DNA of 64,000 nt. It comes from a virus. Its lineage: Duplodnaviria > Heunggongvirae > Uroviricota > Caudoviricetes. The notes beneath the pieces were generated by a model that was not told where the DNA came from, did no database searches, and saw nothing but the letters and a program-made list of their open reading frames with translations. The translations under genes and the position numbers were made by a program. Shown in pieces: positions 2,147 through 58,834 of the stretch (within the stretch, counting starts at the first letter, position 1; each line of letters starts with the position of its first letter). The DNA lies in IMG/VR virus record IMGVR_UViG_2721755676_000001. One strand, 5' to 3'.

Positions 2147-3402
2147 TGGCAATCCCGTCCTCGCTCAGTCTTGTGCAACTGCATTCTGGACAGATGAAAG
2201 TCTTCCAGTCTCCGCATCGATTTAAAGTTGTTTGTGCTGGTCGACGCTGGGGAAAATCCCGGTTGTCGATCTCCACTATTATTCGTGCGGCGGCAAAGGA
2301 AAAAAAGCAAAGGGTCTGGTATGTCGCTCCTACTTACCAGATGGCTCGCCAGATTTTGTGGGACGATCTACAGGAAGTTCTGCCTCGTAAGTGGGTTAGG
2401 AAAAAGAACGACACCACGATGACAATCGTGTTGAAGAACGGTTCGGAGATCGCCCTCAAAGGTGCTGATAAGCCTGACACTCTGCGCGGCGTAGCGTTGC
2501 ATTTTGTAGTGCTTGATGAATTTCAGGATATGAAGGCTGACACCTGGTACAAGGTGTTACGACCTACTCTTTCATCGACACGCGGCGGTGCACTGATCAT
2601 TGGTACGCCAAAAGGCTTCTCGGAATTTCACAAACTGTGGACTATAGGCCAGAACGTAGAGCTGCAAAGAAAGGGACAGTGGAAGAGCTGGCAGTTTGTA
2701 ACTGCCGATTCTCCGTTTGTGCCTACGGCGGAAATTGAAGCTGCTAAGAACGATATGGACCCGAAATCGTTCGCTCAGGAGTACCTGGCGAGCTTTGAGA
2801 ACATGTCCGGGCGCGTTTACTACCCGTTCGATCGTAACGTGCATGTAAAACTGCTTCAGTTCAACCCTCGGTTGCCTATATGGGTAGGGCAGGACTTCAA
2901 CATTGACCCGATGTCTTCCGTAATTTTGCAACCTCAGCCAAATGGTGAGCTATGGGCAATTGATGAATTGGTGCTCTTTTCCTCTAACACGGCAGAAGTT
3001 TGTGATGAGCTTGAGAGACGCTTCTGGCGCTGGAAATCACAGGTAACGGTATTTCCAGATCCGGCAGGTGCTTATCGCCAACATGCTCGTGGGGAGTCTG
3101 ACGTAGACATATTCAAAGAGAAGGGATTCTTACGTGTCGATTATTCGAAAAAGCACCCGCCAATTGCGGATCGTGTTAATGCTGTTAACCGAATGCTGAT
3201 GTCCGCATCTGGAGATATCCGGCTGTATATCGATCCGAAGTGCAAGCATTTGATTGATTCACTGGAAAAAGTCATCTACAAGCCTGGAACACGAGATATG
3301 GATAAGACAGGTGGCATTGAGCATAGTGCAGACGCATTGGGCTATCCAGTACATCGTAGGTATCCAGTCAAAAACCGTGTTATTCTTGGTGGTTCTCGAT
3401 AG
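2146..3402 (+). CDS. terminase large subunit
   Basis: Walker A-like VVCAGRRWGKS and Walker B-like VVLDEF near N-terminus, nuclease-like C-terminal half; position before portal. Confidence 0.85.
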   Translation: MAIPSSLSLVQLHSGQMKVFQSPHRFKVVCAGRRWGKSRLSISTIIRAAAKEKKQRVWYVAPTYQMARQILWDDLQEVLPRKWVRKKNDTTMTIVLKNGSEIALKGADKPDTLRGVALHFVVLDEFQDMKADTWYKVLRPTLSSTRGGALIIGTPKGFSEFHKLWTIGQNVELQRKGQWKSWQFVTADSPFVPTAEIEAAKNDMDPKSFAQEYLASFENMSGRVYYPFDRNVHVKLLQFNPRLPIWVGQDFNIDPMSSVILQPQPNGELWAIDELVLFSSNTAEVCDELERRFWRWKSQVTVFPDPAGAYRQHARGESDVDIFKEKGFLRVDYSKKHPPIADRVNAVNRMLMSASGDIRLYIDPKCKHLIDSLEKVIYKPGTRDMDKTGGIEHSADALGYPVHRRYPVKNRVILGGSR

Positions 3403-3417
3403 GTAAGTAATTATCTA
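3398..3417 (+). promoter_or_regulatory. junction motif GATAGGTAAGTAATTATCTA (TAAGTA family; stop codons in all three frames)
   Basis: Read directly; 14 of 20 bp identical to site at 6821-6840. Confidence 0.4.
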
Positions 3418-3428
3418 AGGTTATTCAA

Positions 3429-5003
3429 ATGGAATTGAACGACAAACAAATTAAGGATCTGGTGGCGCGACGCCACCCGGAATACGAAAAGAAAAAAGAA
3501 CATTGGGACTTCCTCGCCAGCACTTACGCTGGCGGGCGTGGTTGGTTTACAGACAATATCTTTCGTTACTTTAAAGAGGGAGATCAGGAGTTTAAGGAGC
3601 GTGTTGAGCGTGCCTATCGCTTCAACCACACTCGTGAGGTGGTAAACCTCATCAACAAATATCTCTTTAAAGAAGACATTCATAGAAATATCGAAGAGGC
3701 ACCAGAGCAGATCCGCAATTTCTGGAAACGTGCGACTCGCCAGAATGCCTCTATTGACTCATTTATGGCCGCCATTGATTTGCAGTCGTCTATTTACGGT
3801 CGCATATGGGTTGTTGTCGATAGCACGATGAGTGGTGATGTTGAGTCAGTAGCTGACGAGAAAAAGAAAGATGCTCGCGCCTACGCCTACTGGATTTCAC
3901 CTCAGCAAATGCTGGATGTGGCATGGGACGACGACGGGAATATGTTATGGGCGTTAATTGTGGAAGTCGCTCGCGATGACGCAGACCCTTTTACTTCTAC
4001 AGGTCAGGAATACCAACGTTATCGTCTGTGGACACAAAACGAGTGGTATCTGTTCCGTGAGGAAGTGAAGAAGGGGGCTGGTGGAGCAGGTCGTCGTCAG
4101 GCAAAAGTTATTTTAGAGGACAGCGGTGAGCATAATCTCGGCGTAGTTCCTGTGTTTCCTGTTGATTGTATTGGAGAAAGTGAATCACCGTATTTCAGCC
4201 CATCGTTGATCGATGATATCGCTTATCTTGATCGTGCGGTTGCAAACTATCTGTCAAACCTTGATGCCATTATTCAGGATCAGACATTTAGCCAGTTGGC
4301 TATACCGGTACAGTCGCTTTTACCTGGTGATGAAAACCACACTAAAGTGCTTGAAATGGGCACAAAGCGAGTCTTCACCTACGATTCTGAAGGTGGAAAC
4401 CAGCCGTTTTATCTGTCACCAGACCCGAAACAAGCTCAGATGATCATCACTACGATTAAGACGGTGATTAACGAAATCTACCATTCAGTTGGTGTAGCTG
4501 GTGAGCGAACGAAGCAGGACAACGCACAGGGAATCGATAATTCATCTGGTGCCGCAAAAATGTATGACTTCCAGCGTGTAAATAGCTTGCTTGTCACAAA
4601 AGCAGAGCGTCTGGAAAGGGCTGAACGCCAAATCATGCTACTGGTTGCGAAATGGATGGGGGTAGATCTGGACGAAGACCACTCTTTAATTGCGTATCCA
4701 GAAAGTTTCGATATTCGTGGCCTTACTGATGAATTTTCTGTTGCCGAGAAACTGTCATTACTTCAGGCACCGGACTCTGTACGTCGTCACCAGATGGAAA
4801 TGCTTATTGAGAAGATTTTCCCGAACATTACTGAGGCGATGAAAAAGGAATTTGATAAAGATCTCTTGAATTTTCCTCCAAAAAATGATCTAAATACCCT
4901 TGAAAATAAGTCAGTACTTACTTATGATCGTGGTGCAGCCCAAGAAAGCGGGCAAGATCAACCCCGAGGGAATGGGGACTCATCTACTCAAGAGAACGAG
5001 TGA
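3429..5003 (+). CDS. portal protein (putative)
   Basis: 524-aa ORF directly after large terminase, followed by scaffold and capsid; AAGG RBS. Confidence 0.7.
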   Translation: MELNDKQIKDLVARRHPEYEKKKEHWDFLASTYAGGRGWFTDNIFRYFKEGDQEFKERVERAYRFNHTREVVNLINKYLFKEDIHRNIEEAPEQIRNFWKRATRQNASIDSFMAAIDLQSSIYGRIWVVVDSTMSGDVESVADEKKKDARAYAYWISPQQMLDVAWDDDGNMLWALIVEVARDDADPFTSTGQEYQRYRLWTQNEWYLFREEVKKGAGGAGRRQAKVILEDSGEHNLGVVPVFPVDCIGESESPYFSPSLIDDIAYLDRAVANYLSNLDAIIQDQTFSQLAIPVQSLLPGDENHTKVLEMGTKRVFTYDSEGGNQPFYLSPDPKQAQMIITTIKTVINEIYHSVGVAGERTKQDNAQGIDNSSGAAKMYDFQRVNSLLVTKAERLERAERQIMLLVAKWMGVDLDEDHSLIAYPESFDIRGLTDEFSVAEKLSLLQAPDSVRRHQMEMLIEKIFPNITEAMKKEFDKDLLNFPPKNDLNTLENKSVLTYDRGAAQESGQDQPRGNGDSSTQENE

Positions 5004-5024
5004 TAAGTAACAAAAGGAATTTTT

Positions 5025-5912
5025 ATGAATCTGTGGCAAATGCTTTTGGCCCGTCGTGGTCTGATGGATGTCGCTGAAGCGCATGAGCGTGGAGGCGCTG
5101 GCGGTGTAGCTGCTGATAATGAGCAGAGCACACAAGATCCTGACAAACAGGGTGAACAAAAAGAGCAGCCGAAGGGCGATGACGAATACGCTGGGATGAC
5201 TCAGGAAGAGTTACTGGCCGAACTTCGTAAAACCAAGAAAGCTGGTGCTGAACTGCTGAAGGAGAACATGAAGCGCAAAGAGAAAGAGCGCACATTGGCC
5301 GATCAGCTTGCTCAGTACGGTGATATCGACCCGGCGCGTGCTCGCCAGCTTTTAGAAGCTGAACAGGCCGCAGAAAATGCACGTCGTGAGGCGGAGCAAG
5401 CTGAACTGGAGCGTCGTGGTGAGTTCGATGCTGTTAAAAAACAGATGATCGAAGCACACCAGGCAGAGCTGGCACAGCGTGACGAACGTTATACAGCACT
5501 GGAAAGTGAAAACGCATCACTGAAATCTCAATTAGTCGAGATGACCGTGGGCGCTTCCTTCAGTAACTCTCTCTTCCTACGTGACAAAGTTCTGATGACC
5601 CCGGCAAAAGCCCGCGTGATCTACGGTTCTCATTTTGAAGTGGGTGAAGACGGTAGCGTAGTGGGTTATGACAAACCGGCAGGTCATAAAGAACGAGCTG
5701 TTCTGGTTGACGGTGAAGGTAAGCCGTTGCCGTTTGAATCCGCGATTGAACGCATTGTGCGGGCAGATCCGGAAGCTGACGCATTGATGCGTAGCGAAGC
5801 CAAGCAGGGTGTAGGCTCACATTCCAAATCGACCTACACAATATCCCAACCGAAGAACAAGTCGACTATGGATAAGTTGGCCTCCGGTCTGGGGAAAATT
5901 GGACTTAAGTAA
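5025..5912 (+). CDS. scaffolding protein (putative)
   Basis: Highly charged Ala/Glu/Gln-rich coiled-coil-like sequence between portal and capsid genes. Confidence 0.55.
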   Translation: MNLWQMLLARRGLMDVAEAHERGGAGGVAADNEQSTQDPDKQGEQKEQPKGDDEYAGMTQEELLAELRKTKKAGAELLKENMKRKEKERTLADQLAQYGDIDPARARQLLEAEQAAENARREAEQAELERRGEFDAVKKQMIEAHQAELAQRDERYTALESENASLKSQLVEMTVGASFSNSLFLRDKVLMTPAKARVIYGSHFEVGEDGSVVGYDKPAGHKERAVLVDGEGKPLPFESAIERIVRADPEADALMRSEAKQGVGSHSKSTYTISQPKNKSTMDKLASGLGKIGLK

Positions 5913-5937
5913 CATCTAAATCAAAGGGAATTGATAG

Positions 5938-6813: not shown

Positions 6814-6820
6814 TCAGTGT

Positions 6821-6840
6821 GGTAGATAAGTAATTATCTA
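6821..6840 (+). promoter_or_regulatory. junction motif GGTAGATAAGTAATTATCTA (perfect dyad TAGATAA-GTAA-TTATCTA)
   Basis: Read directly; TAG/TAA/TAA in three frames. Confidence 0.4.
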
Positions 6841-6847
6841 TGTTTAA

Positions 6848-6873
6848 GGGTGGGCTATACGCCCACCCTTTTT
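6848..6873 (+). terminator. intrinsic terminator (GGGTGGGC-TATAC-GCCCACCC + TTTTT)
   Basis: 8-bp GC-rich stem, 5-nt loop, T-run; directly after capsid gene. Confidence 0.75.
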
Positions 6874-6886
6874 GTAGGAGCAAGAA

Positions 6887-7807: not shown

Positions 7808-7813
7808 CCGACA

Positions 7814-7835: not shown

Positions 7836-7851
7836 GAGGAGAGAAAGCGTT

Positions 7852-10392: not shown

Positions 10393-10466
10393 GTTAATCG
10401 GTAGGTATATACTTACTGTTAGCGCAATGAATGCGTAGAATTAACGGAAAAAGGAGTTTTCCATCA

Positions 10467-16890: not shown

Positions 16891-16913
16891 GGATAAGTAA
16901 GTACTAATTTACT
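16891..16913 (+). promoter_or_regulatory. junction motif GGATAAGTAAGTACTAATTTACT
   Basis: Read directly; TAA in all three frames. Confidence 0.4.
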
Positions 16914-16966
16914 ATCATTGTGGCGCTGACAGGATGTTAGCGCCTACTTATTTCAAGGATGAAACA

Positions 16967-23807: not shown

Positions 23808-23831
23808 AATAGGTAAGTATCTACTTAATAG
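23808..23831 (+). promoter_or_regulatory. junction motif AATAGGTAAGTATCTACTTAATAG
   Basis: Read directly; upstream of side tail fibre gene. Confidence 0.35.
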
Positions 23832-29334: not shown

Positions 29335-29354
29335 TAGGTAAGTACACACCTACA
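29334..29354 (+). promoter_or_regulatory. junction motif GATAGGTAAGTACACACCTAC
   Basis: Read directly; ~50 nt upstream of lysis cassette. Confidence 0.35.
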
Positions 29355-34356: not shown

Positions 34357-34409
34357 CCTGCTTCTGTATATAAATAATAAGTAACTTATTAAATATATAC
34401 GGAAGCAGG
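34357..34409. repeat. 53-bp near-palindromic element, copy 2 (identical to 1343-1397 except one TA unit)
   Basis: Read directly; lies in divergent intergenic region before replication module. Confidence 0.8.
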
Positions 34410-34492: not shown

Positions 34493-34510
34493 GATAAGTA
34501 AGTAACTACC
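34493..34510 (+). promoter_or_regulatory. junction motif GATAAGTAAGTAACTACC
   Basis: Read directly; TAA in three frames; 16 nt upstream of ATG 34526. Confidence 0.4.
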
Positions 34511-34525
34511 AACTAGGTGAGCCAC

Positions 34526-37927: not shown

Positions 37928-37949
37928 ATAAGTAGATGATTACTTATCT
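37928..37949 (+). promoter_or_regulatory. dyad motif AATAAGTAGATGATTACTTATC (ATAAGTA / TACTTAT arms)
   Basis: Read directly; upstream of 37989 gene. Confidence 0.35.
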
Positions 37950-38771: not shown

Positions 38772-38826
38772 GCTCTCAGTGTGTCGTTTTTTACGCAAAT
38801 AATGATAGGTAAGCACAAGATTATTT

Positions 38827-41285: not shown

Positions 41286-41313
41286 GATAAGTATTTACTT
41301 ACTTATCTTTTAT
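41286..41313 (+). terminator. stem-loop GATAAGTA-TTTACT-TACTTATC followed by TTTTAT (weak terminator; also a TAAGTA-family site)
   Basis: Read directly. Confidence 0.4.
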
Positions 41314-42054
41314 GTATAAGATGACTTTGTTTTCGTTGAGACGCGACTGTTTGAACTTAAATACAAGTGCAAACGAAGAAGTCTATCTGGCAGTAGCCTA
41401 ATAAGCCAAACACCAGCGAGGTCAGTTTCCAGCCTCGTTACCGAAATGGGACACACTGAGCGAGTGTGATTGCAGAACGCAGGAGGGAACATGAATGTTC
41501 CCTCCGATGAAGTAACAGAATGGGCGGTTGGTATATTTTCAACTCCATATGACTCCCGGATTCTTAGCCACTGACCGCCCATCCTGTTACGTCATTTTGT
41601 TCAATTATGTCGTTTATACTGGGTTAAAAAGCGGCGACGTAGCCCGGCTGGTATGGTTAGCCAGCACACAACGTTGAGGCCATTACATTTTTATCAATTC
41701 TAAGGTTCTATTCACAGAGATACCGGCGAGCGTTGATATGTAACATGTTGGGCAAACATTCAATCGGAGTAGTGGCCTCAACGTTGTGAAGACAGGATTG
41801 TTGTGTAGGTTTAACCACTGTTGCCATTGGTGCCTGTTTTCACAACAAATGATTCCATACATCACATTGTATAAATTACAAAGTAGGTGCTGTCCTCAGA
41901 AACATCATCTACTTAAAGATTTTGCCTTCTACTATTGAGCGAAGTCGAAAGCGTCTGGCACTAACGAAAAGTGCAAGTAGCGGTGCGTTTCCTGGCAGAA
42001 ACTAAACCGTTGCGATTGGCACTGTTGAGTAATAAATACTGGCAGTGCTGAATT

Positions 42055-42126
42055 GATGGTGTAGCTCAGCGGTAGAGCAGTTGGCTGTTAACCAACTGGT
42101 CGGTGGTTCGAATCCACCCACCATCG
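42055..42126 (+). tRNA. tRNA-Asn (anticodon GTT)
   Basis: Cloverleaf folded by hand: acceptor GATGGTG/CACCATC, anticodon loop CTGTTAA, T-arm GGTGG-TTCGAAT-CCACC, discriminator G then CCA. Confidence 0.85.
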
Positions 42127-42134
42127 CCAATTTA

Positions 42135-42218
42135 GGGGAGTTAGTCCGTAGGGGCAGCGGAGTAGACTGTAAATCTACTGTCATGGCGACTCGGGTGGTT
42201 CGACTCCATCACTCCCCA
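42135..42218 (+). tRNA. tRNA-Tyr (anticodon GTA), long variable arm
   Basis: Acceptor GGGGAGT/ACTCCCC, anticodon stem GTAGA/TCTAC with loop CTGTAAA, long variable arm, TTCGACT T-loop, CCA encoded. Confidence 0.8.
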
Positions 42219-42225
42219 CCAAATT

Positions 42226-42298
42226 GCCGGTTTAGCTCAGTTGGTAGAGCGCCTGCCTTGTAAGCAGGATGTCAGCGGTTCGAGTCCGCTAACCGGCA
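42226..42298 (+). tRNA. tRNA-Thr (anticodon TGT)
   Basis: Acceptor GCCGGTT/AACCGGC, D-arm GCTC-AGTTGGTA-GAGC, anticodon loop CTTGTAA, T-arm AGCGG-TTCGAGT-CCGCT, CCA encoded. Confidence 0.85.
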
Positions 42299-42525
42299 CC
42301 AATACAACGATAAGATCATTACGGTTAATCGTCGTTCATGTGCACAATGACTGGTCGAAAGGTAGTGATCTTACCGTTGTGGTGGATTCGCAGACTGATG
42401 CGATAGCTTTCTTGGATGTTAGGGAAATGCGGCCGCAAATCTTCCCTTTCGCGAGCGGTGATCGTCCGTAGTCCTAATTGGCTGCACCGTATGCCGGAGA
42501 TTCAGTACCGGCCACCACAACGGCC

Positions 42526-42609
42526 GGAGAGTAGGGAGCATGGTGCTCAAGCGGTCTTGAAAACCGTCCCATTGCGCAAGCGATGATGGTTCGATTCCAT
42601 TACTCTCCG
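42526..42609 (+). tRNA. tRNA-Ser (anticodon TGA), long variable arm
   Basis: Acceptor GGAGAGT/ACTCTCC, anticodon loop CTTGAAA, long variable arm, T-loop TTCGATT, discriminator G, CCA encoded. Confidence 0.7.
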
Positions 42610-42789
42610 CCAGACACAGCGTTGAGCGGTTTGGCCTTTTAATCACCCAGATTAAGACTCCGCTAACATAAACCAGACCGCTCAACGCTGTGATAGACAA
42701 TTACGGCAGACGTTCTTAACCATAGCTTGCTAACATCCTAGCAACACTTTTTTCAGCGCAAAATTCAAAGGGGCTTCGGCCCCTTTTTG

Positions 42790-43686: not shown

Positions 43687-43861
43687 CTAAACCTCTACGA
43701 AAATCTTACCTATAAGACAGTCCTTAATGTAATCTGTTTTCTCCACTACTTCAAATTACCTCACAATCTATTGATAGGTGACTACCTACTTACATACAAA
43801 GTTGATTTATAGTATAGTCCCTCTGTTGCGTATTAGTATTTTAAAAGGCATCTGTTAAGTT

Positions 43862-44198: not shown

Positions 44199-44335
44199 TT
44201 AAAGACCACTTCACCCTTGCGTTCAGCTTCAGCTTTAGCAGTCATGAATCGTTTGATCATTTCGACTTTGCTAGCATGGATAGTTTTAAAATCAATCTTC
44301 CCTTTGTTTTGGGTAGTGTTGTGTTCGTATCGCAT
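44199..44335 (-). CDS. hypothetical small protein (45 aa; not in ORF track)
   Basis: Minus-strand ORF ATG 44335 to TAA 44199, overlapping the 3' end of the upstream minus-strand gene by 44 nt. Confidence 0.25.
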
Positions 44336-44846
44336 AGGAAGCTCCGTCATTTAAATAAGTTAGGCCACGCTCTTGTGTAAATCTCTTCACATATCTCTTG
44401 TATGTGGCCATCAGTTCTTCGCGTTCTGCCGCAAAGAATAAAATCTGTATGCCTTCATTGTCGGCAACTTTGAGCATTAAGTCAACTAAAGTACCGTAAA
44501 GGTATTGAAGTTCACCTAAAGTAAGATTAAAAGACCCTTCGGGTTTGGCAAATACGTTAATTGGCTCTTCCGCTCCAAGAGCAGCATTCTGGAGCTGTTC
44601 TTGCTGCCTGTCAAGTTGAATCATGTCCACAAAACTAACGACAGATACACACAACCCATAAACATCAGCACCTAACATATTATGCATAGTTTCTGCGGCA
44701 ACAGGATCTAAAGAAGGAGGGCAAAAGACTAAACGGTATCTAGCCTTACGAGCTTCATTGCCAGAGAAAACAAAGTCTATATCTAAATATGACAGATCAC
44801 CCGGCAATGAAGCCAAACCAGGTGTAACCAACTTATGCAAGTGCAT
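44292..44846 (-). CDS. hypothetical protein
   Basis: 184-aa minus-strand ORF divergent from the recombinase gene. Confidence 0.5.
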   Translation of the reverse strand: MHLHKLVTPGLASLPGDLSYLDIDFVFSGNEARKARYRLVFCPPSLDPVAAETMHNMLGADVYGLCVSVVSFVDMIQLDRQQEQLQNAALGAEEPINVFAKPEGSFNLTLGELQYLYGTLVDLMLKVADNEGIQILFFAAEREELMATYKRYVKRFTQERGLTYLNDGASYAIRTQHYPKQRED

Positions 44847-45113: not shown

Positions 45114-46217
45114 ATGAAAAATAGCTTTGACAGAGCACGCGCTGCGGAGAACACCTCAAAAGAGGCGATAGAGTATCTCGAAAGAGCATCTCAAATGCAG
45201 GCCGTTATGATCTCCCAGGTCAGCAATGACATGAGATTCTCGGACGCATTCATGTTATTCACTCGCTTATCTCTGCTGATAACCAGACGTCGGCCAGAGA
45301 TCGCTGTTCATTGTATTTTGATACATGTTTTGCCGCACATTGCCGATGTAAAAGTAAGTGACATTAATAGGTTCATGGTGAACCAACTGGTCAACCCACT
45401 AATACTGGATGGCAAAATTGTTATGGGCCGCCGCGTTTTCTCTCTGATGAAGCAGTTCCTTAGCTGGTGCGCCTTCCAGGGGATGATAGACGTGTCACCG
45501 TTAAACGATATGTCACTAAACAAAGTTGCCGGTGGCGCAAAGCCCACACCTCGCGAGCGGAAGCTGACCGACGCAGAGGTATGGGTGTTCTGGAATATAT
45601 GGGACTACTTCAATGTGTGCGCTGGTACAAAATGGGCGGCCAGGCTGTGTCTTGTATCCGCAAGACGACCTGACGAAGTACTGCGGGCTAAAAAAAGTGA
45701 GTTCAATCTTAAGCGTGGGGTTTGGAATCAAGGCAAGAGGAACAAATCTGCCCGTGAGCATTCTCTGCCTTTAAGCTCATTAATGCGCACTTGTATTGAA
45801 GAGTTGTTCGAATATGGTAAAGACAGCCAGTGGCTCGTGCCTTCGAATAAAAAAATCGGGAAAGACCTTCCTATGTCTAAAGTGGCAATAGCCCAGGCAT
45901 TACGTCGTATTCTGGAACGACCAGAACTGATGGAGCTTGAGCCATTTACACCCCGAGACTTGCGCCGTACTGCGCGTAGTTACTTCCCAGCATTAGGCAT
46001 AAGCCAGGAGGTATCACGCAAAATCATGAACCACAGTCTTGAGGGGATAGATCGAGTCTACGACCGGCACGATTATATGGACGAGATGCGAGACGCCTTA
46101 GAAAGTTTCTCGACGTACATCGCATCAATCGTAGAGCAACCGGATTTAGACGAAATTGACCACAAATTCAAGGGAGATCGTCTATCAACAGAGCTTATTC
46201 GTGTAAATTTTTCATAG
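45114..46217 (+). CDS. tyrosine recombinase / integrase family protein
   Basis: C-terminal catalytic-region pattern TPRDLRRTARS...IMNHSLEGIDRVYDRHDY (R, H, Y positions); upstream Arg ARRPDEV; GGTGA RBS. Confidence 0.65.
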   Translation: MKNSFDRARAAENTSKEAIEYLERASQMQAVMISQVSNDMRFSDAFMLFTRLSLLITRRRPEIAVHCILIHVLPHIADVKVSDINRFMVNQLVNPLILDGKIVMGRRVFSLMKQFLSWCAFQGMIDVSPLNDMSLNKVAGGAKPTPRERKLTDAEVWVFWNIWDYFNVCAGTKWAARLCLVSARRPDEVLRAKKSEFNLKRGVWNQGKRNKSAREHSLPLSSLMRTCIEELFEYGKDSQWLVPSNKKIGKDLPMSKVAIAQALRRILERPELMELEPFTPRDLRRTARSYFPALGISQEVSRKIMNHSLEGIDRVYDRHDYMDEMRDALESFSTYIASIVEQPDLDEIDHKFKGDRLSTELIRVNFS

Positions 46218-46598
46218 AGACTTTATGGCCTCAACAACCTTTTGTGATGCGCCTTTCTCTTTACCGAATCGCTCGTTATATGCAGCAAGAACCTGTTTTT
46301 CGTCCTCGTTAAGAGGAGCGGTGCCTTCTTTGTATAAAAATGCTGCGAGTTCAGGTTGGCGTTCTTCCAGCACCATCATCATAAGACGACTTGGCTCAAT
46401 ACCCAGCGCCAGCGCCAACGGACGAACCTTATCGATAGGCAAAGGAATTTTGCCACTTTTAATTAAAGAAAGGTTGTTGGCATTTTTATAACCAATAAGT
46501 CTGGCTATTTGGGCCTGACTCATAGGTGAGGATTCAATCAGCCCTGCGATAAAAGCAGCATAGCGACTTTCTATAAATTCAATCTTGTTGTCAGACAT
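46212..46598 (-). CDS. XRE-family helix-turn-helix transcriptional regulator (putative repressor)
   Basis: HTH-like MSQAQIARLIGYKNANNLSLIKSGK; convergent with recombinase gene; AAAGG RBS. Confidence 0.7.
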   Translation of the reverse strand: MSDNKIEFIESRYAAFIAGLIESSPMSQAQIARLIGYKNANNLSLIKSGKIPLPIDKVRPLALALGIEPSRLMMMVLEERQPELAAFLYKEGTAPLNEDEKQVLAAYNERFGKEKGASQKVVEAIKSL

Positions 46599-46626: not shown

Positions 46627-46640
46627 TCTGGTAAGTGCTT
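46627..46640. promoter_or_regulatory. perfect 14-bp palindrome GGTAAGTGCTTACC (candidate operator) upstream of the XRE regulator gene
   Basis: Read directly; 29 nt upstream of the regulator start codon; shares GTAAGT half-site with the genome-wide motif. Confidence 0.5.
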
Positions 46641-46848
46641 ACCGATATTACATCAAAGGTTAGGGTTGTAAAGCTATTATCATTTTTTCGATAGGCACTT
46701 AAAAGACCGGTTAAAGGCCATTGCACGGAGAAAAATTAGCCCAAAACAGGTAAGAAAATTAACTTGCATATGATATGAATGTATTCAGTATTGATATAAA
46801 TTTTAGTAGTATTCCTTACCATAGTATAAGTTAGAATGGATTGATTGA

Positions 46849-47159: not shown

Positions 47160-49268
47160 ATGTCTAAAAAACGTTCCATCAAAGAGGTTCAGGACTTCCG
47201 TGACAGTGTAAAACGAGTAGTCGCTCTCCTTTCAGGTAAAAACATCCCTGTTGCAGAACGAGGGGACGACGCTTATGTACGCTATAACGATGATGGAGAG
47301 CCAATTCTCGTAAACATCCCATCAATCCCGGATAACGCAACACCGGCATTGATGAATGCTGTGCGCGGATTTCTCGATCATGAGGTTGCTCACATTTTGT
47401 TTACCGATATTCGTGTGTCCAACAAAATGAGAGAAAAAGGACGCGTTCCTTCCTGGTCGCTATGGAATGCCTTAGAAGACGTGTTCATCGAGCGAAAAAT
47501 GGGTCAGGTCTTTAACGGAACAAGACGTAATCTGATGGCAACTCAGCGCCTTATAATCGAAAAAGTCTTTAAACCAAAGGCTTCAGAGGCTATTGCTTAT
47601 TGTGGCAAAGATCAGCGCGCGCTTTTTCTAAACTTCTTTCTCTGTCCGGTTGTAAGAGCCTGGGATGGCCAAGCACCGTTCGTAGATTTCATGGATGAAC
47701 ATTGGCCTGTCATTGAGAAACCAATTTCATTATTAAAAGAACATGGTATCGATGTGGCCGTGCGTAACATGTCTTGCACCGAGGATTGTGTAAAGGTGGC
47801 TGCGACCATAGCTAAGATCCTCAAAGACACTGAAAGTGAAAGCAAAGGTAAGGAGTCAGCTCCGGGAAAAACTTCCGATCCTTCAGACGCTGACCAGACG
47901 GATGCCTCTGGAGAAAACAATGAAGACAACGAAGATCATGAGACTCCCTCAGTGTTAGATAATCACAAATCTATCAAATCAGAATCACATAGTAAGTACA
48001 AACATGATAATAACGACAGTGATGATTCAGATAATTCTGAATCATCAGAAACAATATTCGATGATACAGAAAATGATAAAGAGGTATCAGATTCTGATGC
48101 TTCTGATAACGCGGCGTCAGAATCATTAACCGCTGACCACGAAAAAAGAAAAACGACAGAAGACGGCTCTTCAGATATCCCAACTCCGTCAAAAATGAGT
48201 CTGGAAGAGGCTTTAGAGGAGCTGGATAGCATAGAAGATGAAGTCGGAGGCATGACAGAAGATGCTCTATCCGAAACGATTAAAAGCGAGTTAACAGAAA
48301 GCTCGAAAAGCGAATACAGGCCATACAATCGCTCATACGACTTCATCGGCTCGATTGATCAGGCAGAAGCCCATATCAAACGGCTTATTAAAACATTCTC
48401 CGATATTGATTTGGGAGGATATCCAATCAGCCGCTATCGCATCGTTCCTGAAGGCAACCAGCTCTTCGACAAATATATTGAAAAGCATCTTTCGTCAGGT
48501 GTTTCGTCGACGCTGGCAAAAGACCTGGAGCGAGCAATAGCAAGCAGAAACAGAGTTCAGTTTATACCGGGCCAGCGTCGGGGGCGCATTCATGGTTCTA
48601 GTATCTACAGATTAGCAATGAATGATGCTCGCGTGTTTCGTAAAAAAGAAGAATCTAAAGCCGTTAACGCCTGTGTTCAACAAGTGATTGATTTATCAGG
48701 TTCAATGAGTGGTATAACGATTAAACTGGCTCTTGCAAGTGCATATACCATCGCCGATGCCCTTGATCGAATAAATGTTCCCAACATTATCACCGGCTTC
48801 ACTACATTTGGTAGTCATATGGCGGCAGGAGAACTTAAGGCTGTCAAGTATGAGTTCTCTCGCTTTGAATCTTTAATGCTACCTATCATCAAAAATTGGA
48901 ATGAAAAGGTAAATTCTCGCGAAGTTCGCTCACGTATGGGGTGCGTAGGCTACACATTCCCACTTCTTAATAACGTGGATGGTGAAAGCATAGCCAGCCT
49001 TGCATCGTTATTTTCCGGTCGCATGGAGGACAGGAAGATCATGCTTGTTCTGAGTGATGGCGCGCCGTGGGCTGTTGGGAGAGGTTTTGACGCTCATTTG
49101 CGTTCAGTTGCGAAGCAAATTGAAACGCAGACTGATATTGATTTGATGGCAATTGGCATCATGACTGACGCACCGGAGAAATTTTACTCAAATCATGCCC
49201 TGGTAACGAGCGTTGATAGTCTTGGTTCATCTGTAGTTACTGAACTATCTCGTATCATTTTAAAGTGA
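47160..49268 (+). CDS. CobT-like protein with C-terminal von Willebrand A domain
   Basis: MIDAS motif VIDLSGSMSG in C-terminal domain; long acidic Asp/Ser/Glu-rich linker; paired with downstream AAA+ ATPase. Confidence 0.7.
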   Translation: MSKKRSIKEVQDFRDSVKRVVALLSGKNIPVAERGDDAYVRYNDDGEPILVNIPSIPDNATPALMNAVRGFLDHEVAHILFTDIRVSNKMREKGRVPSWSLWNALEDVFIERKMGQVFNGTRRNLMATQRLIIEKVFKPKASEAIAYCGKDQRALFLNFFLCPVVRAWDGQAPFVDFMDEHWPVIEKPISLLKEHGIDVAVRNMSCTEDCVKVAATIAKILKDTESESKGKESAPGKTSDPSDADQTDASGENNEDNEDHETPSVLDNHKSIKSESHSKYKHDNNDSDDSDNSESSETIFDDTENDKEVSDSDASDNAASESLTADHEKRKTTEDGSSDIPTPSKMSLEEALEELDSIEDEVGGMTEDALSETIKSELTESSKSEYRPYNRSYDFIGSIDQAEAHIKRLIKTFSDIDLGGYPISRYRIVPEGNQLFDKYIEKHLSSGVSSTLAKDLERAIASRNRVQFIPGQRRGRIHGSSIYRLAMNDARVFRKKEESKAVNACVQQVIDLSGSMSGITIKLALASAYTIADALDRINVPNIITGFTTFGSHMAAGELKAVKYEFSRFESLMLPIIKNWNEKVNSREVRSRMGCVGYTFPLLNNVDGESIASLASLFSGRMEDRKIMLVLSDGAPWAVGRGFDAHLRSVAKQIETQTDIDLMAIGIMTDAPEKFYSNHALVTSVDSLGSSVVTELSRIILK

Positions 49269-49363
49269 ACAAAACAGCCTTTACGATAAGTAACCACTTA
49301 CGATATATAATGATATATTTATATAAGAAGTTGAACGCTCATTAGAGAACAAAGGAAAAACGC

Positions 49364-54298: not shown

Positions 54299-54423
54299 TC
54301 CCATAAACATGGCCTCTATGGCCATGTTTTCTCTTATCCCCTCATATCCCCTATCCTCGAACTCCTTGCCTTATCATCACAATGATATAATCAATATAAG
54401 ATGATAAGTAAAAAGGAAAGCAC

Positions 54424-54855
54424 ATGATCACCGATATTTACGAGAAAATAATGTCTGATCTCGAGTTTGACCGAGACAATCTGGAGGAAGTCTGGCGTAG
54501 ACAACCCCGCCTTTTAATGGAGTATGGCTCAAAACTCGCTCATGCAGAAAGAAGTGTCGCAGAGGCAAAACTTAACCTTGAAGCTGTTGAAGCAAAGCTA
54601 TACGACACAGAGCGTAAGAACTTGAGTATGAACGGCATTAAGTTCAACGAATCTGTACTGGACGCTAAGGTTAAAACAAACCCACAGTATCTGTCTAAAA
54701 GGCAGAAGTTGGATGAAGCACGGCACATCGCAGACATATACAAACATGCTGTCGCCGCCTTTTCGCATCGCCGAGACATGATCGTTCAGGCGTCAAAGAT
54801 GGCCATCGTTGAATTAGAGCGATTAGGCTCTGAACGCTTTATTACTCCCCGTTGA
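54424..54855 (+). CDS. hypothetical helical protein (speculatively a recombination mediator)
   Basis: 143-aa ORF with AAAGGAAAG RBS; no secure motif. Confidence 0.45.
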   Translation: MITDIYEKIMSDLEFDRDNLEEVWRRQPRLLMEYGSKLAHAERSVAEAKLNLEAVEAKLYDTERKNLSMNGIKFNESVLDAKVKTNPQYLSKRQKLDEARHIADIYKHAVAAFSHRRDMIVQASKMAIVELERLGSERFITPR

Positions 54856-54860
54856 TTTTT

Positions 54861-54889
54861 GATAGATAATAAGTAAGTACTGATCTATC
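54861..54889 (+). promoter_or_regulatory. dyad motif GATAGATAATAAGTAAGTACTGATCTATC
   Basis: Read directly; 7-bp inverted arms GATAGAT/ATCTATC around TAAGTAAGTA core. Confidence 0.4.
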
Positions 54890-54972
54890 ATTTAACAGCT
54901 CGAAAGAGCCACGAATGAACGAAAGCCCAACGCGCATAGCGCCATCGGCCAAATCACAACAAGGAGAAACAC

Positions 54973-56001
54973 ATGTCTAAGACATTACTTGATTTGCTTA
55001 ACAAAACTCGTGAAGACATTGCCGCCAAACGTGGTAACAACGTTGATCTGACTCGCTTAAAAGACGGCGTCAACTATATCCGCATCTTCCCGAATAAAGA
55101 CGACCCAAACGGTAAGTTCTTCCAGACTTTCGGTATGCACTACGTTAAGTATCAGAACGAGGAAGGTAAAGAAGCAACCAACGCTTATATTTGTGAGCAA
55201 CATACTCACGGTCGCGCTTGTCAGCTATGCGAAATGGTGATGGAAGGTCGCGCTCGTCACAAGGGTAACAAAGCAATGGAAGAACGCATCGGTCAAATGC
55301 GTGCCACTCCTCGCTACCTGGTCAACGGCATTCTTTCTGCTCGTGAGGATTTCGCAGATGCTGAGAAATGCCAGTTAATCGAGCTGCCGTCTACTGTATT
55401 CGATGATATCTGCAAAGCAATCACCGAAGACATCGCTGATGATATCGGCAATCCACTGAGCAAAGAGGAAGGCTACGCATTCCTGATTAAACGTACTGGC
55501 TCTGGTCGCGATACCAAATATGACGTCTCGCCTAAGCGTAAAGTCTACAAAGGCGATATCGAAGATAAATTCTGGAATACCCAGCATGATCTGATCGCAT
55601 ACGCAAATCAGGCTGATGAAACTCGTCTTCTGTCGACAGTTCGCACTATGGGTCGTCTGATTGGCATCGCTGCACCAACTGCCGCAGCATCTGCACCAGC
55701 AATTTCCTCAACCGCGAAAACATCGGCTGCGGCACTACCTGGATTTGGCTCTGTCACTGGTCATACGGAGGGTGCGACGGCTGTAGCTACCGCTCATACC
55801 CCAGCTTCTGAACCAACCAGTCTGGTTGATGAAGAAATCCTCCGTGCCGTTGAAACTGAATTTAAACCAGAAGCAAGTTCCGCTGCCGTTGCAGTATCAG
55901 TCAAAGAGTCTGAAGCAGTCGCAGCGACATCTGTAGCAGCCGCATCTGCGACGGAAGATGAAGGTCTGGATGACCTACTGAGAGAGCTGGACTCTCTGTA
56001 A
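54973..56001 (+). CDS. putative single-stranded DNA-binding protein (gp32-like zinc-binding type)
   Basis: Cys/His cluster CEQHTHGRACQLCEM; acidic C-terminal tail EDEGLDDLLRELDSL; position in replication module. Confidence 0.5.
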   Translation: MSKTLLDLLNKTREDIAAKRGNNVDLTRLKDGVNYIRIFPNKDDPNGKFFQTFGMHYVKYQNEEGKEATNAYICEQHTHGRACQLCEMVMEGRARHKGNKAMEERIGQMRATPRYLVNGILSAREDFADAEKCQLIELPSTVFDDICKAITEDIADDIGNPLSKEEGYAFLIKRTGSGRDTKYDVSPKRKVYKGDIEDKFWNTQHDLIAYANQADETRLLSTVRTMGRLIGIAAPTAAASAPAISSTAKTSAAALPGFGSVTGHTEGATAVATAHTPASEPTSLVDEEILRAVETEFKPEASSAAVAVSVKESEAVAATSVAAASATEDEGLDDLLRELDSL

Positions 56002-56017
56002 TCCCATTACGTGACCA

Positions 56018-56046
56018 GTAAGGCGTCTACGGACGCCTTACTTTTT
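56018..56046 (+). terminator. intrinsic terminator (GTAAGGCGTC-TACG-GACGCCTTAC + TTTTT)
   Basis: 10-bp stem plus T-run directly after SSB-like gene. Confidence 0.75.
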
Positions 56047-56061
56047 GGAAGGAATGTACCG

Positions 56062-57006
56062 GTGAATTATCTCTTCGTAGATGGCAATAGCCTGGGTTAT
56101 TACCACCAACAATCTGACAAATTGCACAACGGCGAAATGGAAGTACAGGCTGCTTTCGGCTTTGTTAAGAACGTCCGTCGTTATGCCTCCATCCTCCATG
56201 CCCGACCTATGATTCTTTGGGATGGATTTAGTGACAAGCGTCGCGACTTTTACCCGGACTACAAAGCAAATCGCGACGACGATCCTGATATGAAAAAGAT
56301 GAAGGAAGGCTTTGCTATCCAGAAGCCATACATCCTCAAAATGATGACCGCGCTTGGAGTTACCCAACTCATTGCAAAAGATGCAGAAGCGGATGATCTG
56401 GCCGGGCTGCTGGTATCCCGCATGGCAGCGCAGCCAACCGTTGAACACATCTATCTGTTAACAGGCGATAGCGACTGGCTTCAGTTAGTTCGCGAAAACG
56501 TAAGCTGGGTAAGCCTGCGTGAAGACGCCAAAAACAAGCAGGTTAATTTTGAGCAATTTGCGGAGCTGACAGGATTCGCTACTCCTCGCGCATTTTTGGA
56601 AGCAAAAGCATTACAAGGCGATAAATCGGACAACATTAGCGGTGTTGGTGGCATTGGTGCTGGCGGTGCGAAAGAGCTGCTGCATGAATGGGGAAGTGTC
56701 GCAACGATGGTACGCGGCATCAACGACGGCTCAATCGTGGTTGACAAAGGACGCCATAAGACCGCCTTCAACAAACTAGCGAAGAATGCCTTCAACGAGA
56801 AAACAGGCTGTCGAATGCTCGAAGCGTTCAAGAGAAACATCACGCTAATGAACCTGATTGAGACGAAGTTTCCGCCTACCGAAATCGAAACAATCAAAGG
56901 CAATCGTGACGTGAAAGCATTCGAGCAACTGTGCTACGAGCTGAATTTCCGTTCGTTCCTTGAAGACCTTGAAGTGTTTGTTCTTCCATTCGAAAGGTAT
57001 TGCTAA
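56062..57006 (+). CDS. 5'-3' exonuclease / flap endonuclease (Pol I N-terminal domain-like)
   Basis: N-terminal LFVDGNSLGYY and H3TH-like GDKSDNISGVGGIGAGGAKELL; GTG 56062 with GGAAGGA RBS (track ORF start at 56011 lies inside the terminator). Confidence 0.75.
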   Translation: MNYLFVDGNSLGYYHQQSDKLHNGEMEVQAAFGFVKNVRRYASILHARPMILWDGFSDKRRDFYPDYKANRDDDPDMKKMKEGFAIQKPYILKMMTALGVTQLIAKDAEADDLAGLLVSRMAAQPTVEHIYLLTGDSDWLQLVRENVSWVSLREDAKNKQVNFEQFAELTGFATPRAFLEAKALQGDKSDNISGVGGIGAGGAKELLHEWGSVATMVRGINDGSIVVDKGRHKTAFNKLAKNAFNEKTGCRMLEAFKRNITLMNLIETKFPPTEIETIKGNRDVKAFEQLCYELNFRSFLEDLEVFVLPFERYC

Positions 57007-57272
57007 TGCTTAAATCGATTATCAATGGCGCTACAACCACCCCTGCCCAACTGGCAAAAGAGATTGTCTTTTATCACGGTGAGTACGCTGTCATCGCACT
57101 GCCGTCAATTCTAGGCGCTGCCGGAATGAAAGCGACAGATCGCGAGTTTGGATTAGTCAGCGAGCAGGTCGTAAAAATCCTCGCTCGTGTATCCAGACTC
57201 CTTAACCACGATGCGATTGTATTCGACGAATCCGCCGCTTTAAAACGAATCAACGAAACAAAAGGAGCCTGA
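57006..57272 (+). CDS. hypothetical small protein
   Basis: ATG overlapping upstream stop (TAATG); AAGG RBS. Confidence 0.45.
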   Translation: MLKSIINGATTTPAQLAKEIVFYHGEYAVIALPSILGAAGMKATDREFGLVSEQVVKILARVSRLLNHDAIVFDESAALKRINETKGA

Positions 57273-57274
57273 TC

Positions 57275-58348
57275 ATGGCAAAAGGAAAATCCGCACTGGC
57301 ACTTGCTCTGAAAAAGAAAATCGGTAGCAACGACGAAATTCAGAAAGTAACTCATTGGATTGATACAGGCTTTCCACCGTTAAACAAAGCTATTTCTGGT
57401 CGTTACGATGGCGGCTTCCCATGTGGTCGTATCGTCGAAGTATTCGGTCCTCCAAGTGCAGGGAAAACGTTCCTTGCAACAGCAGCGATGATCTCCGCTC
57501 AAAAACAAGATGGTCTGGCGGTATTCCTCGATCATGAAAACAGTTTTGACGTTGGCCTGGCTGTAGCCAATGGCCTGAACGCAGATGAGGATGACGGTCA
57601 GTGGGTCTACAAACAGCCGGATACCTTCGAAGACTCCGTAGAGCTGATCGGCACAATCCTCAAGCTGGTGCGCGACGAAGAGCTTATTCCGGAAACAGCC
57701 CCTATCTGCATCGTAGCCGACTCTCTGGCGTCGATGGTTCCGAACTCGAAGGCTGAGAAGTTCGACAAGATGGCAGAAGGCACTGCGAAGGACAAAGATC
57801 AGCTGAACATGAACGACAACACGGCGCTGGCGCGCGCGACAAGTGCGAACTTCCCTACTCTGGCGCTTTGGGCGCGTAAGTACAACGCGTGCATCATCTT
57901 CTTGAACCAGGTGCGTACCAAAATTGGTGTGATGTTTGGCGATCCGACTACGTCTCCGGGTGGCGACTCTCCGAAGTTCTACGCGTCGGTGCGCATCCGT
58001 CTGGGTGCATCCGTCATGAAGGATGGCAAAGAGAAGATCGGACAGGACGTTGGCGCCGAGTGCATTAAAAACAAAGTCGCGCCTCCGTTTGGCAAATGCT
58101 CATGGAAATTCTACTTCGACCCGACTCGCGGGCTGGACGTCGTCGAGTCTCTGGTTGAATACATGCTGGAGGAAGGATACCTGCCCAAGAGCGCCAGCGG
58201 GCGTGTGGAAATTGGCGAGAAGAAATACACCAAATCACAGATCGTCGAGATGTACCGGGAGAAGCCATTAGCTGAAATCATTGCTGCGTTACAGGCAATA
58301 GATGACAGGCGCGAGAAGACATCACCGACAGATGAATTAGAAGATTAA
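57275..58348 (+). CDS. RecA-family recombinase (RecA/UvsX-like)
   Basis: Walker A GPPSAGKT, Walker B ICIVADSLAS, RecA-like FLNQVR block; AAAAGGAG RBS. Confidence 0.85.
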   Translation: MAKGKSALALALKKKIGSNDEIQKVTHWIDTGFPPLNKAISGRYDGGFPCGRIVEVFGPPSAGKTFLATAAMISAQKQDGLAVFLDHENSFDVGLAVANGLNADEDDGQWVYKQPDTFEDSVELIGTILKLVRDEELIPETAPICIVADSLASMVPNSKAEKFDKMAEGTAKDKDQLNMNDNTALARATSANFPTLALWARKYNACIIFLNQVRTKIGVMFGDPTTSPGGDSPKFYASVRIRLGASVMKDGKEKIGQDVGAECIKNKVAPPFGKCSWKFYFDPTRGLDVVESLVEYMLEEGYLPKSASGRVEIGEKKYTKSQIVEMYREKPLAEIIAALQAIDDRREKTSPTDELED

Positions 58349-58353
58349 TTTTC

Positions 58354-58378
58354 AGGCGTCCGAATGGACGCCTTTATA
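58354..58378 (+). terminator. putative terminator (AGGCGTCC-GAAT-GGACGCCT + TTATATCTT)
   Basis: 8-bp stem, weak U-tract. Confidence 0.5.
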
Positions 58379-58438
58379 TCTTGAAAATATATAAGCACTT
58401 ACTTTTCATCTACATACAATAGCCACATAGGAAAACAC

Positions 58439-58639
58439 ATGATCAAACTCTATCTGATGGCAGTGGCTACAGGTATATCTGTAGTTTTCATCTACTGTTT
58501 GCTGGTTCCGTCGCTGATCTCGGCTAAAAGCGATATTGCCGTAATGCTTGGAATCATTGTTGCTTTTGGCGCTCCTGTTATCGGCTTTAATGTTGGTCGT
58601 AACTTTCTGAAGTCACTAATTAATTCGAAGGGGAAGTAA
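58439..58639 (+). CDS. small two-TM membrane protein
   Basis: 66 aa with two hydrophobic segments; AGGAAAA RBS. Confidence 0.45.
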   Translation: MIKLYLMAVATGISVVFIYCLLVPSLISAKSDIAVMLGIIVAFGAPVIGFNVGRNFLKSLINSKGK

Positions 58640-58642
58640 GTA

Positions 58643-58834
58643 ATGAAGAAAGGTTTACTGGCAGTGATCGTGGCTGCTGTTTGCACAATGGGTCTTACAG
58701 GCTGCGATCGTGTTGAGCCTGGGTACGTTGGCATCAAAGTAAACAAATTGGGTGAAGACAAAGGTATCGGTGAAGTTGTCGGCGTTGGCCGTCAGTGGAC
58801 TGGTCTGAATACCGAGCTGTACACCTCTCTTTAA
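58643..58834 (+). CDS. small lipoprotein (short or truncated)
   Basis: Signal peptide with lipobox LTGC; only 63 aa; GGGGAAG RBS. Confidence 0.45.
   Translation: MKKGLLAVIVAAVCTMGLTGCDRVEPGYVGIKVNKLGEDKGIGEVVGVGRQWTGLNTELYTSL

Follow-up and report, generated by a model that had tools for sequence, protein, structure and literature searches.

Dispersed palindromes at the gene junctions of an SSU5-like phage-plasmid: putative operators of a phage-encoded repressor

Introduction

Why should the short spacers between the genes of a tailed phage carry, over and over, versions of the same A/T-rich word? The question is raised by a 64,000-nucleotide stretch of viral DNA (IMG/VR record IMGVR_UViG_2721755676_000001; this whole stretch is here called the window), for which an initial annotation, made from the sequence alone, listed 18 gene junctions with such a word and proposed that it was either a promoter or operator bound by a dimeric regulator or a translational stop in all three frames. 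By computation, the word is enriched and dyad-symmetric, it is conserved at the same junctions in related elements and altered in concert from one lineage to the next, it overlaps promoter-like sequences, and a copy of it stands at the promoter of a gene for an XRE-type helix-turn-helix protein of 128 amino acids (46212..46598, minus strand). The motif set consists of real, strongly non-random, conserved and co-evolving palindromes that are, to judge from their sequences, putative protein-binding sites. The reading that we favour, with a probability of roughly 0.55, is that they would serve a dimeric repressor, encoded by the phage-plasmid itself, as dispersed operators. The leading candidate for that repressor is the XRE-type protein, and we hold its identification as the binder with somewhat less confidence than the model as a whole.

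The element to which the window belongs is an SSU5-like phage-plasmid. Long stretches of the window match Escherichia phage Cyrano, which is the plasmid prophage pLF82 of E. coli LF82, at 96% identity, and identity to Salmonella phage SSU5 is ~80%; phage-plasmids of this type measure ~105 kb, and position 1 of the Cyrano record corresponds to window position 1381. Nearly all of the genes are on the plus strand and they follow the order packaging, head, tail, lysis, partition, helicase/primase/ligase and tRNAs, after which the genome continues with an integrase and the XRE protein, and then with CobT-like proteins, the DNA polymerase III alpha subunit and recombination genes. Relatives of the terminase are present in 1037 plasmid records of PLSDB.

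The motif and its distribution

When its copies are aligned, the word proves to be an 18-bp imperfect palindrome, TA[AG]GTAAGT followed by ACTTAC[CT]TA (written out, TAGGTAAGTACTTACCTA), with symmetric A/T-rich flanks. The dyad symmetry noticed in the initial annotation is borne out, although the shape and the membership of the family are not as first described. Positions 3 and 16, which are partners in the palindrome, vary independently of each other. About 15 copies lie between genes of the window and about 25 are found per whole genome, at distances of 2 to 131 nt from the next start codon.

The word is enriched by several counts. The most over-represented 8-mer of the window is ATAAGTAA, with 10 copies against an expected 0.96, and TAAGTAAGTA occurs 16 times at no more than one mismatch, against 3.0 in shuffled sequences (shuffle maximum 7). 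Intergenic DNA makes up just 7% of the window, but it holds 27 of the 46 copies of TAAGTA. With a symmetric matrix built solely from the sites of SSU5, and a threshold of at least 15 bits for a strong site, the window contains 12 strong sites as against 0.03 in shuffles, and 11 of these 12 are intergenic (P = 2.6e-12). In the opposite direction, a matrix trained on the window gives ~21 matches of at least 20 bits in the whole of Cyrano, 8 of them beyond the part that the window covers, and ~21 matches in SSU5; in both genomes nearly all are intergenic. The best-scoring strand in SSU5 is plus for 10 sites and minus for 11, so there is no strand preference. The comparison with shuffled controls and coding DNA that had been proposed as a check therefore speaks for a genuine intergenic element. 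In the literature that we searched, no published description of the motif word was found.

The sites of the window, with their bit scores, are the following.

3400..3417: TAGGTAAGTAATTATCTA, 19.6 bits; opens with the large terminase stop codon, and the portal start codon is 11 nt downstream; orthologous site in SSU5, Klebsiella and the type B and C lineages (types are defined in the next section)
4907..4924: TAAGTCAGTACTTACTTA, 28.4 bits; within the portal gene, 100 nt before the next gene; occupies the 17-bp spacer of a promoter-like TTGAAA (4900-4905)-17-TATGAT (4923-4928)
6823..6840: TAGATAAGTAATTATCTA, 22.3 bits; between the major capsid stop codon and an intrinsic-terminator hairpin (6848-6864); orthologous sites in relatives
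10398..10415: TCGGTAGGTATATACTTA, 19.4 bits; upstream of the major tail gene, with orthologues in relatives; can alternatively be read as a 14-bp form, TAGGT-ATAT-ACTTA; overlaps a promoter-like TTGAAT-18-TATACT
16894..16911: TAAGTAAGTACTAATTTA, 21.9 bits; between minor tail genes M and L, with a hairpin next to it at 16922-16944; overlaps a promoter-like TGGATA-17-TATCAT
23810..23827: TAGGTAAGTATCTACTTA, 26.6 bits; between the tail-tip J and tail fibre genes; kept in Cyrano and SSU5
29335..29352: TAGGTAAGTACACACCTA, 21.8 bits; 51 nt upstream of the holin gene; the SSU5 orthologue is a perfect palindrome, TAGGTAAGCGCTTACCTA
34495..34512: TAAGTAAGTAACTACCAA, 23.2 bits; directly before the first gene of the helicase/primase module; in the alignment a TATGAT-like -10 is conserved ~20 nt upstream
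37929..37946: TAAGTAGATGATTACTTA, 24.6 bits; past the primase gene, 42 nt before the next gene
38806..38823: TAGGTAAGCACAAGATTA, 9.4 bits, weak; left half good, right half degenerate; SSU5, Klebsiella and Cronobacter keep the left half at this junction
41288..41305: TAAGTATTTACTTACTTA, 30.7 bits, the best of the window; between the last gene of the ligase block and the tRNA region; orthologues in relatives
43775..43792: TAGGTGACTACCTACTTA, 13.7 bits, moderate; in a divergent intergenic region, with a promoter-like match adjoining
46629..46644: TGGTAAGTGCTTACCG, 8.1 bits as an 18-mer; operator-like copy that begins right after the -10 of the XRE promoter
49285..49302: GATAAGTAACCACTTACG, degenerate, with 14-bp arm spacing, then TATATAAT; below detection by the matrix, but orthologous to a good type B site, TAAGTAGGCAACTACTTA, in Cronobacter
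54870..54887: TAAGTAAGTACTGATCTA, 29.0 bits; upstream of the gene for a gp32-like single-strand-binding protein, inside a promoter-like TAGATA-17-TATCAT (54863-54891)
58388..58405: TATATAAGCACTTACTTT, 22.4 bits; after a terminator (58354-58373) and before a small membrane-protein gene; the SSU5 orthologue lies within TTGAAA-17-TATCAT

Ten of the 18 junctions originally listed (3398, 6821, 10401, 16891, 23808, 29334, 34493, 37928, 41286 and 54861) are strong members under the matrix. Three others (38804, 46627 and 49283) are weak or degenerate, but their junctions have a related site in relatives. The remaining entries, 4993/5004, 5903, 44101, 54401 and 58631, are runs of stop codons or single half-sites and do not belong to the family, and at 4993/5004, 5903 and 54401 no site is present in the relatives compared. 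Conversely, the sites at 4907-4924 (within the portal gene), 43775-43792 and 58388-58405 had been missed.

Two further observations concern individual sites. A moderate match of 14.7 bits, TAGATAATCACAAATCTA, lies at 47956-47973 within a CobT-like gene, and Cyrano has it too. Just 3' of the site at 41288, the window, SSU5 and Klebsiella pJN2-26 share an identical block, TTGTTTTCGTTGAGACGCG (~41325-41345), and the DNA between this block and the site has diverged.

Concerted change of the motif among relatives

The comparison covered 80 relatives around the terminase gene, plasmids in full from Cronobacter, Klebsiella and Moellerella, and partial sequence from further lineages. All of them have a site at the terminase/portal junction, in the interior of the portal gene, at the capsid end, at the major tail gene and upstream of a ParB-like operon. 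In related phages the sites thus occupy the same gene junctions. What they do not share is the word itself: it differs between lineages, but it does so identically at every site within a genome, and this holds for at least seven lineages, out to Acinetobacter. The types are as follows.

Type A, half-site TARGTAAGT: E. coli, Salmonella and Klebsiella
Type B, TAGGTAGTT: Cronobacter
Type C, TAGGTATTT: Moellerella and relatives
Type D, TATGTA-N6-TACATA: one viral contig
Type E, GATAAG-N6-CTTATC: Klebsiella
Type F, TCAGTCAGT / ACTGACTGA, 8 copies in 34 kb: Acinetobacter
Type G, TATGTATGT mixed with TAAGTAAGT: E. coli

Such a concerted change at old orthologous sites implies, as far as sequences can tell, that some sequence-specific factor would recognise the sites in trans; generic hairpins or stop signals are ruled out by it. 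The same comparison disposes of the entry at 5004, where type B relatives do not switch to the type B word.

The site within the portal gene is the most instructive. The encoded peptide changes by lineage from KSVLT to RLSTT to RYVNT, the DNA matching the local word in each case, and the type A copy has C rather than A at position 6, by which an in-frame TAA is avoided. Across 37 distinct sequences that represent all lineages, the flanking promoter hexamers are kept, while both the inner word and the portal protein vary by type.

With respect to form, the half-site can be described as a doubled tetranucleotide plus one base, which is (TAAG)2T for type A, (TCAG)2T for Acinetobacter and (TATG)2T for type G (examples are window 16894-16911 and L207 2958-2975). 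The arms are 4 bp closer together in some forms, namely those at 10401 and 49287, the copy at the XRE promoter, and type E.

Since the group is mosaic and the sites stand at gene junctions, they might be imagined as boundary sequences that promote recombination between gene modules or, alternatively, as targets of a host factor. Eighteen bases are insufficient for homologous exchange, however, and neither proposal explains the dyad symmetry or the overlap with promoters. A host transcription factor is moreover unlikely in view of how closely the perfect word is confined to this phage group: among 2.9 million viral contigs just 31 stretches contain the perfect 18-mer, at least half of them on contigs that were retrieved otherwise as SSU5-like, the remainder being mostly of similar size. 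To our knowledge the motif matches none of the CRP, Fur, LexA, TyrR and TrpR consensus sequences; the core of the trp operator recurs as the inner 10 bp of type B, which we take to be a coincidence. We give recombination boundaries and host factors together a very small chance.

Does the motif act as DNA or as RNA?

A palindrome at gene junctions could also be a signal in the transcript, that is, a hairpin for termination, processing or translational control, or simply the three-frame stop originally proposed. It is true that the palindromes are foldable (mean z-score -3.8 against shuffles), that their A- and T-rich flanks resemble those of bidirectional terminators, and that several type A copies do provide stop codons. 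Nevertheless, the hairpins have AT-rich stems and are weak, with a mean of -5.6 kcal/mol, and the mismatches in their arms show no bias towards the pairs that RNA tolerates: over 63 sites in four genomes, mismatched arm positions are G:T in 33 cases and A:C in 29, so that pairing in the sense RNA is not favoured and wobble mismatches are unbiased by strand. Nor would a generic hairpin be expected to change in concert within a lineage, or to stand anywhere from 2 to 131 nt from a start codon. The three-frame stop fails on its own terms, since in the Acinetobacter (type F) and type C variants one frame or more is without a stop and the portal-internal copy, in an essential gene, is translated through. 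An RNA hairpin or terminator was accordingly rejected, and we regard any role in RNA, or as a mere stop, as highly improbable; the element acts as double-stranded DNA.

Relation to promoters

Promoter-like sequences are scarce in the window. Sigma-70-like matches number 10 between 1 and 20 kb, as against 20.9 in shuffled sequence, 5 as against 30.2 between 20 and 40 kb, and 22 as against 32 in the third 20-kb block. The shortfall in the first two blocks suggests that spurious promoters are selected against in the late region. Of the few plus-strand matches (16 in 60 kb), 4-5 fall on sites, and the top match in 1-20 kb, agreeing at 10 of 12 positions, is the TTGAAA-17-TATGAT at 4900-4928 that encloses the portal-internal site. 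Of 52 sites from three genomes, six show the complete promoter geometry facing the way the genes run, and none shows it facing the other way. Within a near-consensus promoter of optimal spacing, a palindrome is placed as a repressor site would be. The portal-internal promoter is indeed near-consensus, yet the list of genes reported to be expressed in Cyrano lysogens does not include those of the capsid (PMC9928086, Table 1).

It does not follow that every site marks a promoter, and the idea of a universal phage-specific promoter is not supported. Several sites of the window lie 3-15 nt from the next start codon, four in SSU5 are 2-18 nt from one, and one site of the window is between the capsid gene and its intrinsic terminator; sites placed in this way cannot be promoters for the next gene. 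In addition, a -10-like hexamer is common on either side of the palindrome alike (forward at 28 and reverse at 37 of the 52 sites). Given this mixed geometry, the set appears to combine promoter-embedded sites with sites away from promoters.

These observations bear directly on an alternative in which the sites would bind an activator of middle or late promoters, and host RNA polymerase would be drawn by the palindrome to a -10 on its downstream border. The precedent is phage P1, where Lpa binds a 9-bp inverted repeat that replaces the -35 in 11 late promoters (PMC10695390). There are points of resemblance: here too the half-sites form a 9-bp inverted repeat, which stands before many operons of a phage-plasmid, including those for structure, lysis and DNA metabolism, the -35 is missing at most sites, and TATCAT-like hexamers begin at core position 17. 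Unlike the P1 promoters, however, the sites have no directional -10 partner, some of their placements are unworkable for a promoter (those next to a start codon or before a terminator leave no room for a leader), and they also precede genes for helicase, single-strand-binding protein, ribonucleotide reductase, thymidylate synthase and methylase. With its near-consensus -35 and 17-bp spacer, the best-conserved site would have no need of an activator; the copy downstream of the -10 of the XRE promoter is in a repressing position; and the annotation of Cyrano names several P1-like proteins, none of them Lpa-like. On balance we consider an activator unlikely.

The XRE protein as candidate binder

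If the sites are operators, the most attractive candidate for the protein that binds them is the XRE-type protein. Its gene has a promoter, TTTACA-16-TAATAT (46672-46645, minus strand), and the copy TGGTAAGTGCTTACCG directly follows the -10; this copy equals the inner 14 bp of the type A word except for two central bases. The initial annotation had described a perfect palindrome in front of the gene, but GGTAAGTGCTTACC has arms of 6+6 about a TG centre that is not symmetric. The arrangement is kept in the sampled type A sub-lineages, whose XRE proteins are just 57-68% identical to that of the window; related copies adjoin the XRE -10 in types C, D and G; and in Acinetobacter the XRE control region contains two palindromic copies and, as read from the sequence, a half-matching third.

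The distribution of the gene is also consistent with such a role. Nearly every plasmid relative has it: it is present in 961 plasmid records, compared with 1037 that have the terminase, the genus counts agreeing among Enterobacterales, and the XRE family was found solely on contigs of ~100-116 kb. The lytic isolate SSU5 has no XRE gene. Its junction at ~42640-42700 is, however, interrupted in Enterobacter plasmids that are 98-99% identical (e.g. NZ_CP064658.1), one of which has XRE and integrase genes ~7 kb past the break. The simplest reading of these sequences is that SSU5 is probably a recent deletion derivative, which would explain why its sites are still intact, and the absence of the gene from SSU5 was withdrawn as counter-evidence.

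The predicted structure of the XRE protein (mean pLDDT 75.5, and 85-89 over residues 11-70) has an N-terminal domain with the Cro/C1-type helix-turn-helix fold, with TM values of 0.7-0.8 to C.BclI, C.AhdI, SinR and the 434 repressor domain, even though in sequence it resembles solved members of the class only marginally (E = 0.15). Helix 3 comprises residues 41-47. Residues 38-45, in and just before this predicted recognition helix, differ among all seven motif types: KN(A/P)N(N/I)LSL in type A, ENANNLSN in B, TAHNNISM in C, PNVNTLSI in D, ENANNISL in E, KRPNVLSM in F and KYQNQVSF in G; N41, S44, I46 and K47 are invariant across types. Within type A, the alternatives shown apart, the stretch is kept in sub-lineages whose XRE proteins share just 57-68% identity with that of the window. 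Two comparisons illustrate the pattern. The XRE protein of Klebsiella pJN2-26 is 57% identical to that of the window, but K38, N39, L43, S44 and L45 are unchanged and the motif is still type A; the type G protein is 62% identical overall, with five changes in residues 38-45, and its motif has changed. That the helix appears to track the motif type is suggestive, but it is not proof.

Other proteins were considered as the binder. For those encoded near the terminase (two ParB-like proteins, an 88-amino-acid putative winged-helix protein, the small terminase and an ABC ATPase) no convincing specificity pattern was seen, and in the 88-amino-acid protein the putative recognition helix is nearly constant between motif types. 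Some 30 conserved small proteins, searched by batch against Pfam or PHROGs, returned 'unknown function' only.

The two ParB-like proteins, which are encoded upstream of the terminase, deserve a separate comment, since the sites could be loading or binding sites for one of them, with a function in partition, DNA organisation or long-range silencing. The models for this are the Noc sites and the operators of KorB, a ParB-family protein that on plasmid RK2 controls many plasmid operons through about a dozen dispersed palindromes. Dispersed palindromes are usual for such sites, both ParB_N-domain proteins are conserved in all relatives, and in types A, B and C their operon is closely preceded by a site. 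Unlike KorB, the ParB-like proteins here show no sign of setting specificity: there is no type-specific cluster of residues between types A, B and C, and Pfam finds a helix-turn-helix in neither protein. Sites, moreover, overlap promoter cores, one of them sits at the XRE promoter, and both ParB-like genes are outside the window. This possibility seems to us quite improbable.

To return to a repressor, most likely the XRE protein, its mode of action might be as follows. In the plasmid (lysogenic) state the protein would occupy the ~25 palindromes of the genome. Where a palindrome lies in the spacer of a sigma-70 promoter or in its -10/+1 region, the bound dimer would exclude RNA polymerase, as could occur at the portal-internal promoter, at those of the gp32-like and membrane-protein genes, and at the promoter of the XRE gene itself. 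At sites with no evident promoter, such as the terminase/portal junction and the site between the capsid gene and its terminator, it might instead be a roadblock or an anchor for cooperative binding. Three separate steps of this account are inferred: binding of the sites by a protein, the identity of that protein as XRE, and repression as the effect.

Several facts weigh against this reading. Most sites have no recognisable -35, the corresponding position being A-rich and unlike TTGACA, and the -10-like hexamers, as noted above, occur on both flanks. The spacing of the arms is variable (18-bp, 14-bp and 16-bp forms), and type G sites are often hybrids of two kinds of half-site, an oddity if the binder is a symmetric homodimer. 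Beside the -10 in the XRE control region of type B there is no clean type B palindrome. SSU5, which lacks the gene, has some of the best palindromes, for which a recent deletion is our explanation. The assignment of the protein to its family is below the Pfam cut-offs (HTH_19, E = 0.0015 and 18.9 bits against a cut-off of 30.2; HTH_37, 16.4 against 27). Finally, the covariation involves seven lineages and ignores phylogeny, and any diverging protein would differ between lineages.

Comparison with known regulatory systems

An operator for a dimeric regulator, possibly of the stoperator kind, was one of the original suggestions, and it is the one best supported by the dyad symmetry, the concerted change, the sigma-70 overlap and the copy at the XRE promoter; the asymmetric form typical of stoperators is what does not apply. 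How then does the motif set compare with systems of dispersed operators that are already known? One is that of phage P1, which likewise exists as a plasmid and has many transcription units, and in which the single repressor C1 acts on many operators across ~100 kb that overlap early and replication promoters. As with C1, many copies of one consensus are spread over the genome, far beyond chance. The P1 operators, however, are asymmetric 17-bp sequences, unlike the dyad-symmetric 18-mers found here, and in P1 the structural and lysis genes depend on Lpa, whereas here these genes also follow the word. In the cluster A mycobacteriophages, the stoperators bound by L5 gp71 number ~25-30 per genome and lie in short intergenic spacers, with only some of them overlapping promoters. 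The sites described here are similarly intergenic and present in tens of copies per genome, and those that are free of promoters could block elongation; stoperators, on the other hand, are 13-14 bp long, asymmetric and oriented with transcription, whereas the palindromes have no strand preference (in SSU5), and the hosts and the repressor families are unrelated. The system would work like the C1 operators of P1, but, because the sites of C1 and of the stoperators are asymmetric, it is a member of neither system.

Dimers of the Cro/C1 helix-turn-helix class bind palindromes of ~14-18 bp and commonly autoregulate. The predicted N-terminal fold of the XRE candidate is like that of such dimers (the 434 repressor, C.AhdI/C.BclI, HipB and HigA); what would be unusual for the class is a regulon as large as ~25 sites.

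Two long palindromes and other features of the genome

The initial annotation counted two 55-bp palindromes as members of the motif family, but they are a separate element, with arms that are conserved in all lineages and a centre that is independent of the motif type. These near-identical palindromes (53-55 bp) have arms CCTGCTTC(T/C)GTATAT / ATATACGGAAGCAGG and are placed as follows.

1343-1397: upstream of the small terminase gene
34357-34409: upstream of the helicase module

Their arms, CCTGCTTCCGTATAT, are kept in relatives from E. coli, Salmonella, Klebsiella and Cronobacter, and the AT-rich centre is variable. As the GenBank records of both Cyrano and SSU5 start and end at the centre of the first copy, the position suggests a packaging or terminus site, or else an origin.

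Around the tRNA genes, between 41.3 and 43.9 kb, the window diverges from Cyrano and has minus-strand open reading frames. Four tRNA genes (Asn, Tyr, Thr and Ser) are present at 42055-42612, a location where three are annotated in Cyrano and one in SSU5. At 44292-44846 (minus strand) is an open reading frame of 184 amino acids, the counterpart of CYRAN_43, which has no match in Pfam and is not found in SSU5, Klebsiella pJN2-26 or Cronobacter. In a study of LF82, CYRAN_43 was expressed in Cyrano lysogens at 723-fold over the prophage background (PMC9928086, Table 1). Beyond the window, a conserved minus-strand gene at Cyrano 780-1301 matches the family of the FljA phase-1 flagellin repressor (Pfam Flag1_repress, E = 1e-80). 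FljA is an RNA-binding translational repressor, and a gene of its family is an unexpected passenger for a phage-plasmid.

Biological significance

A wider proposal, which we offer as a tentative one, is that a single small XRE-type repressor may silence a whole 100-kb phage-plasmid through ~25 palindromes, promoter-free ones included. Its half-site would be of the form (TNAG)2T, from which shifts of 4 bp and single-base changes could create new specificities. The seven or more motif types might then be immunity groups that govern coexistence and superinfection among SSU5-like phage-plasmids, many of which have resistance genes, across Enterobacterales and Acinetobacter.

SSU5-like phage-plasmids are common, with ~1000 plasmid records in PLSDB, and the control of lysogeny and the lytic switch in this group have apparently not been described before. 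If the repressor interpretation is true, the map of sites would be a candidate list of regulated transcription units, the XRE protein would be a testable candidate for the master repressor, and the elements could be sorted by sequence into likely immunity types. A symmetric case of the Cro/C1 type would also join the few phages that are controlled via tens of dispersed operators.

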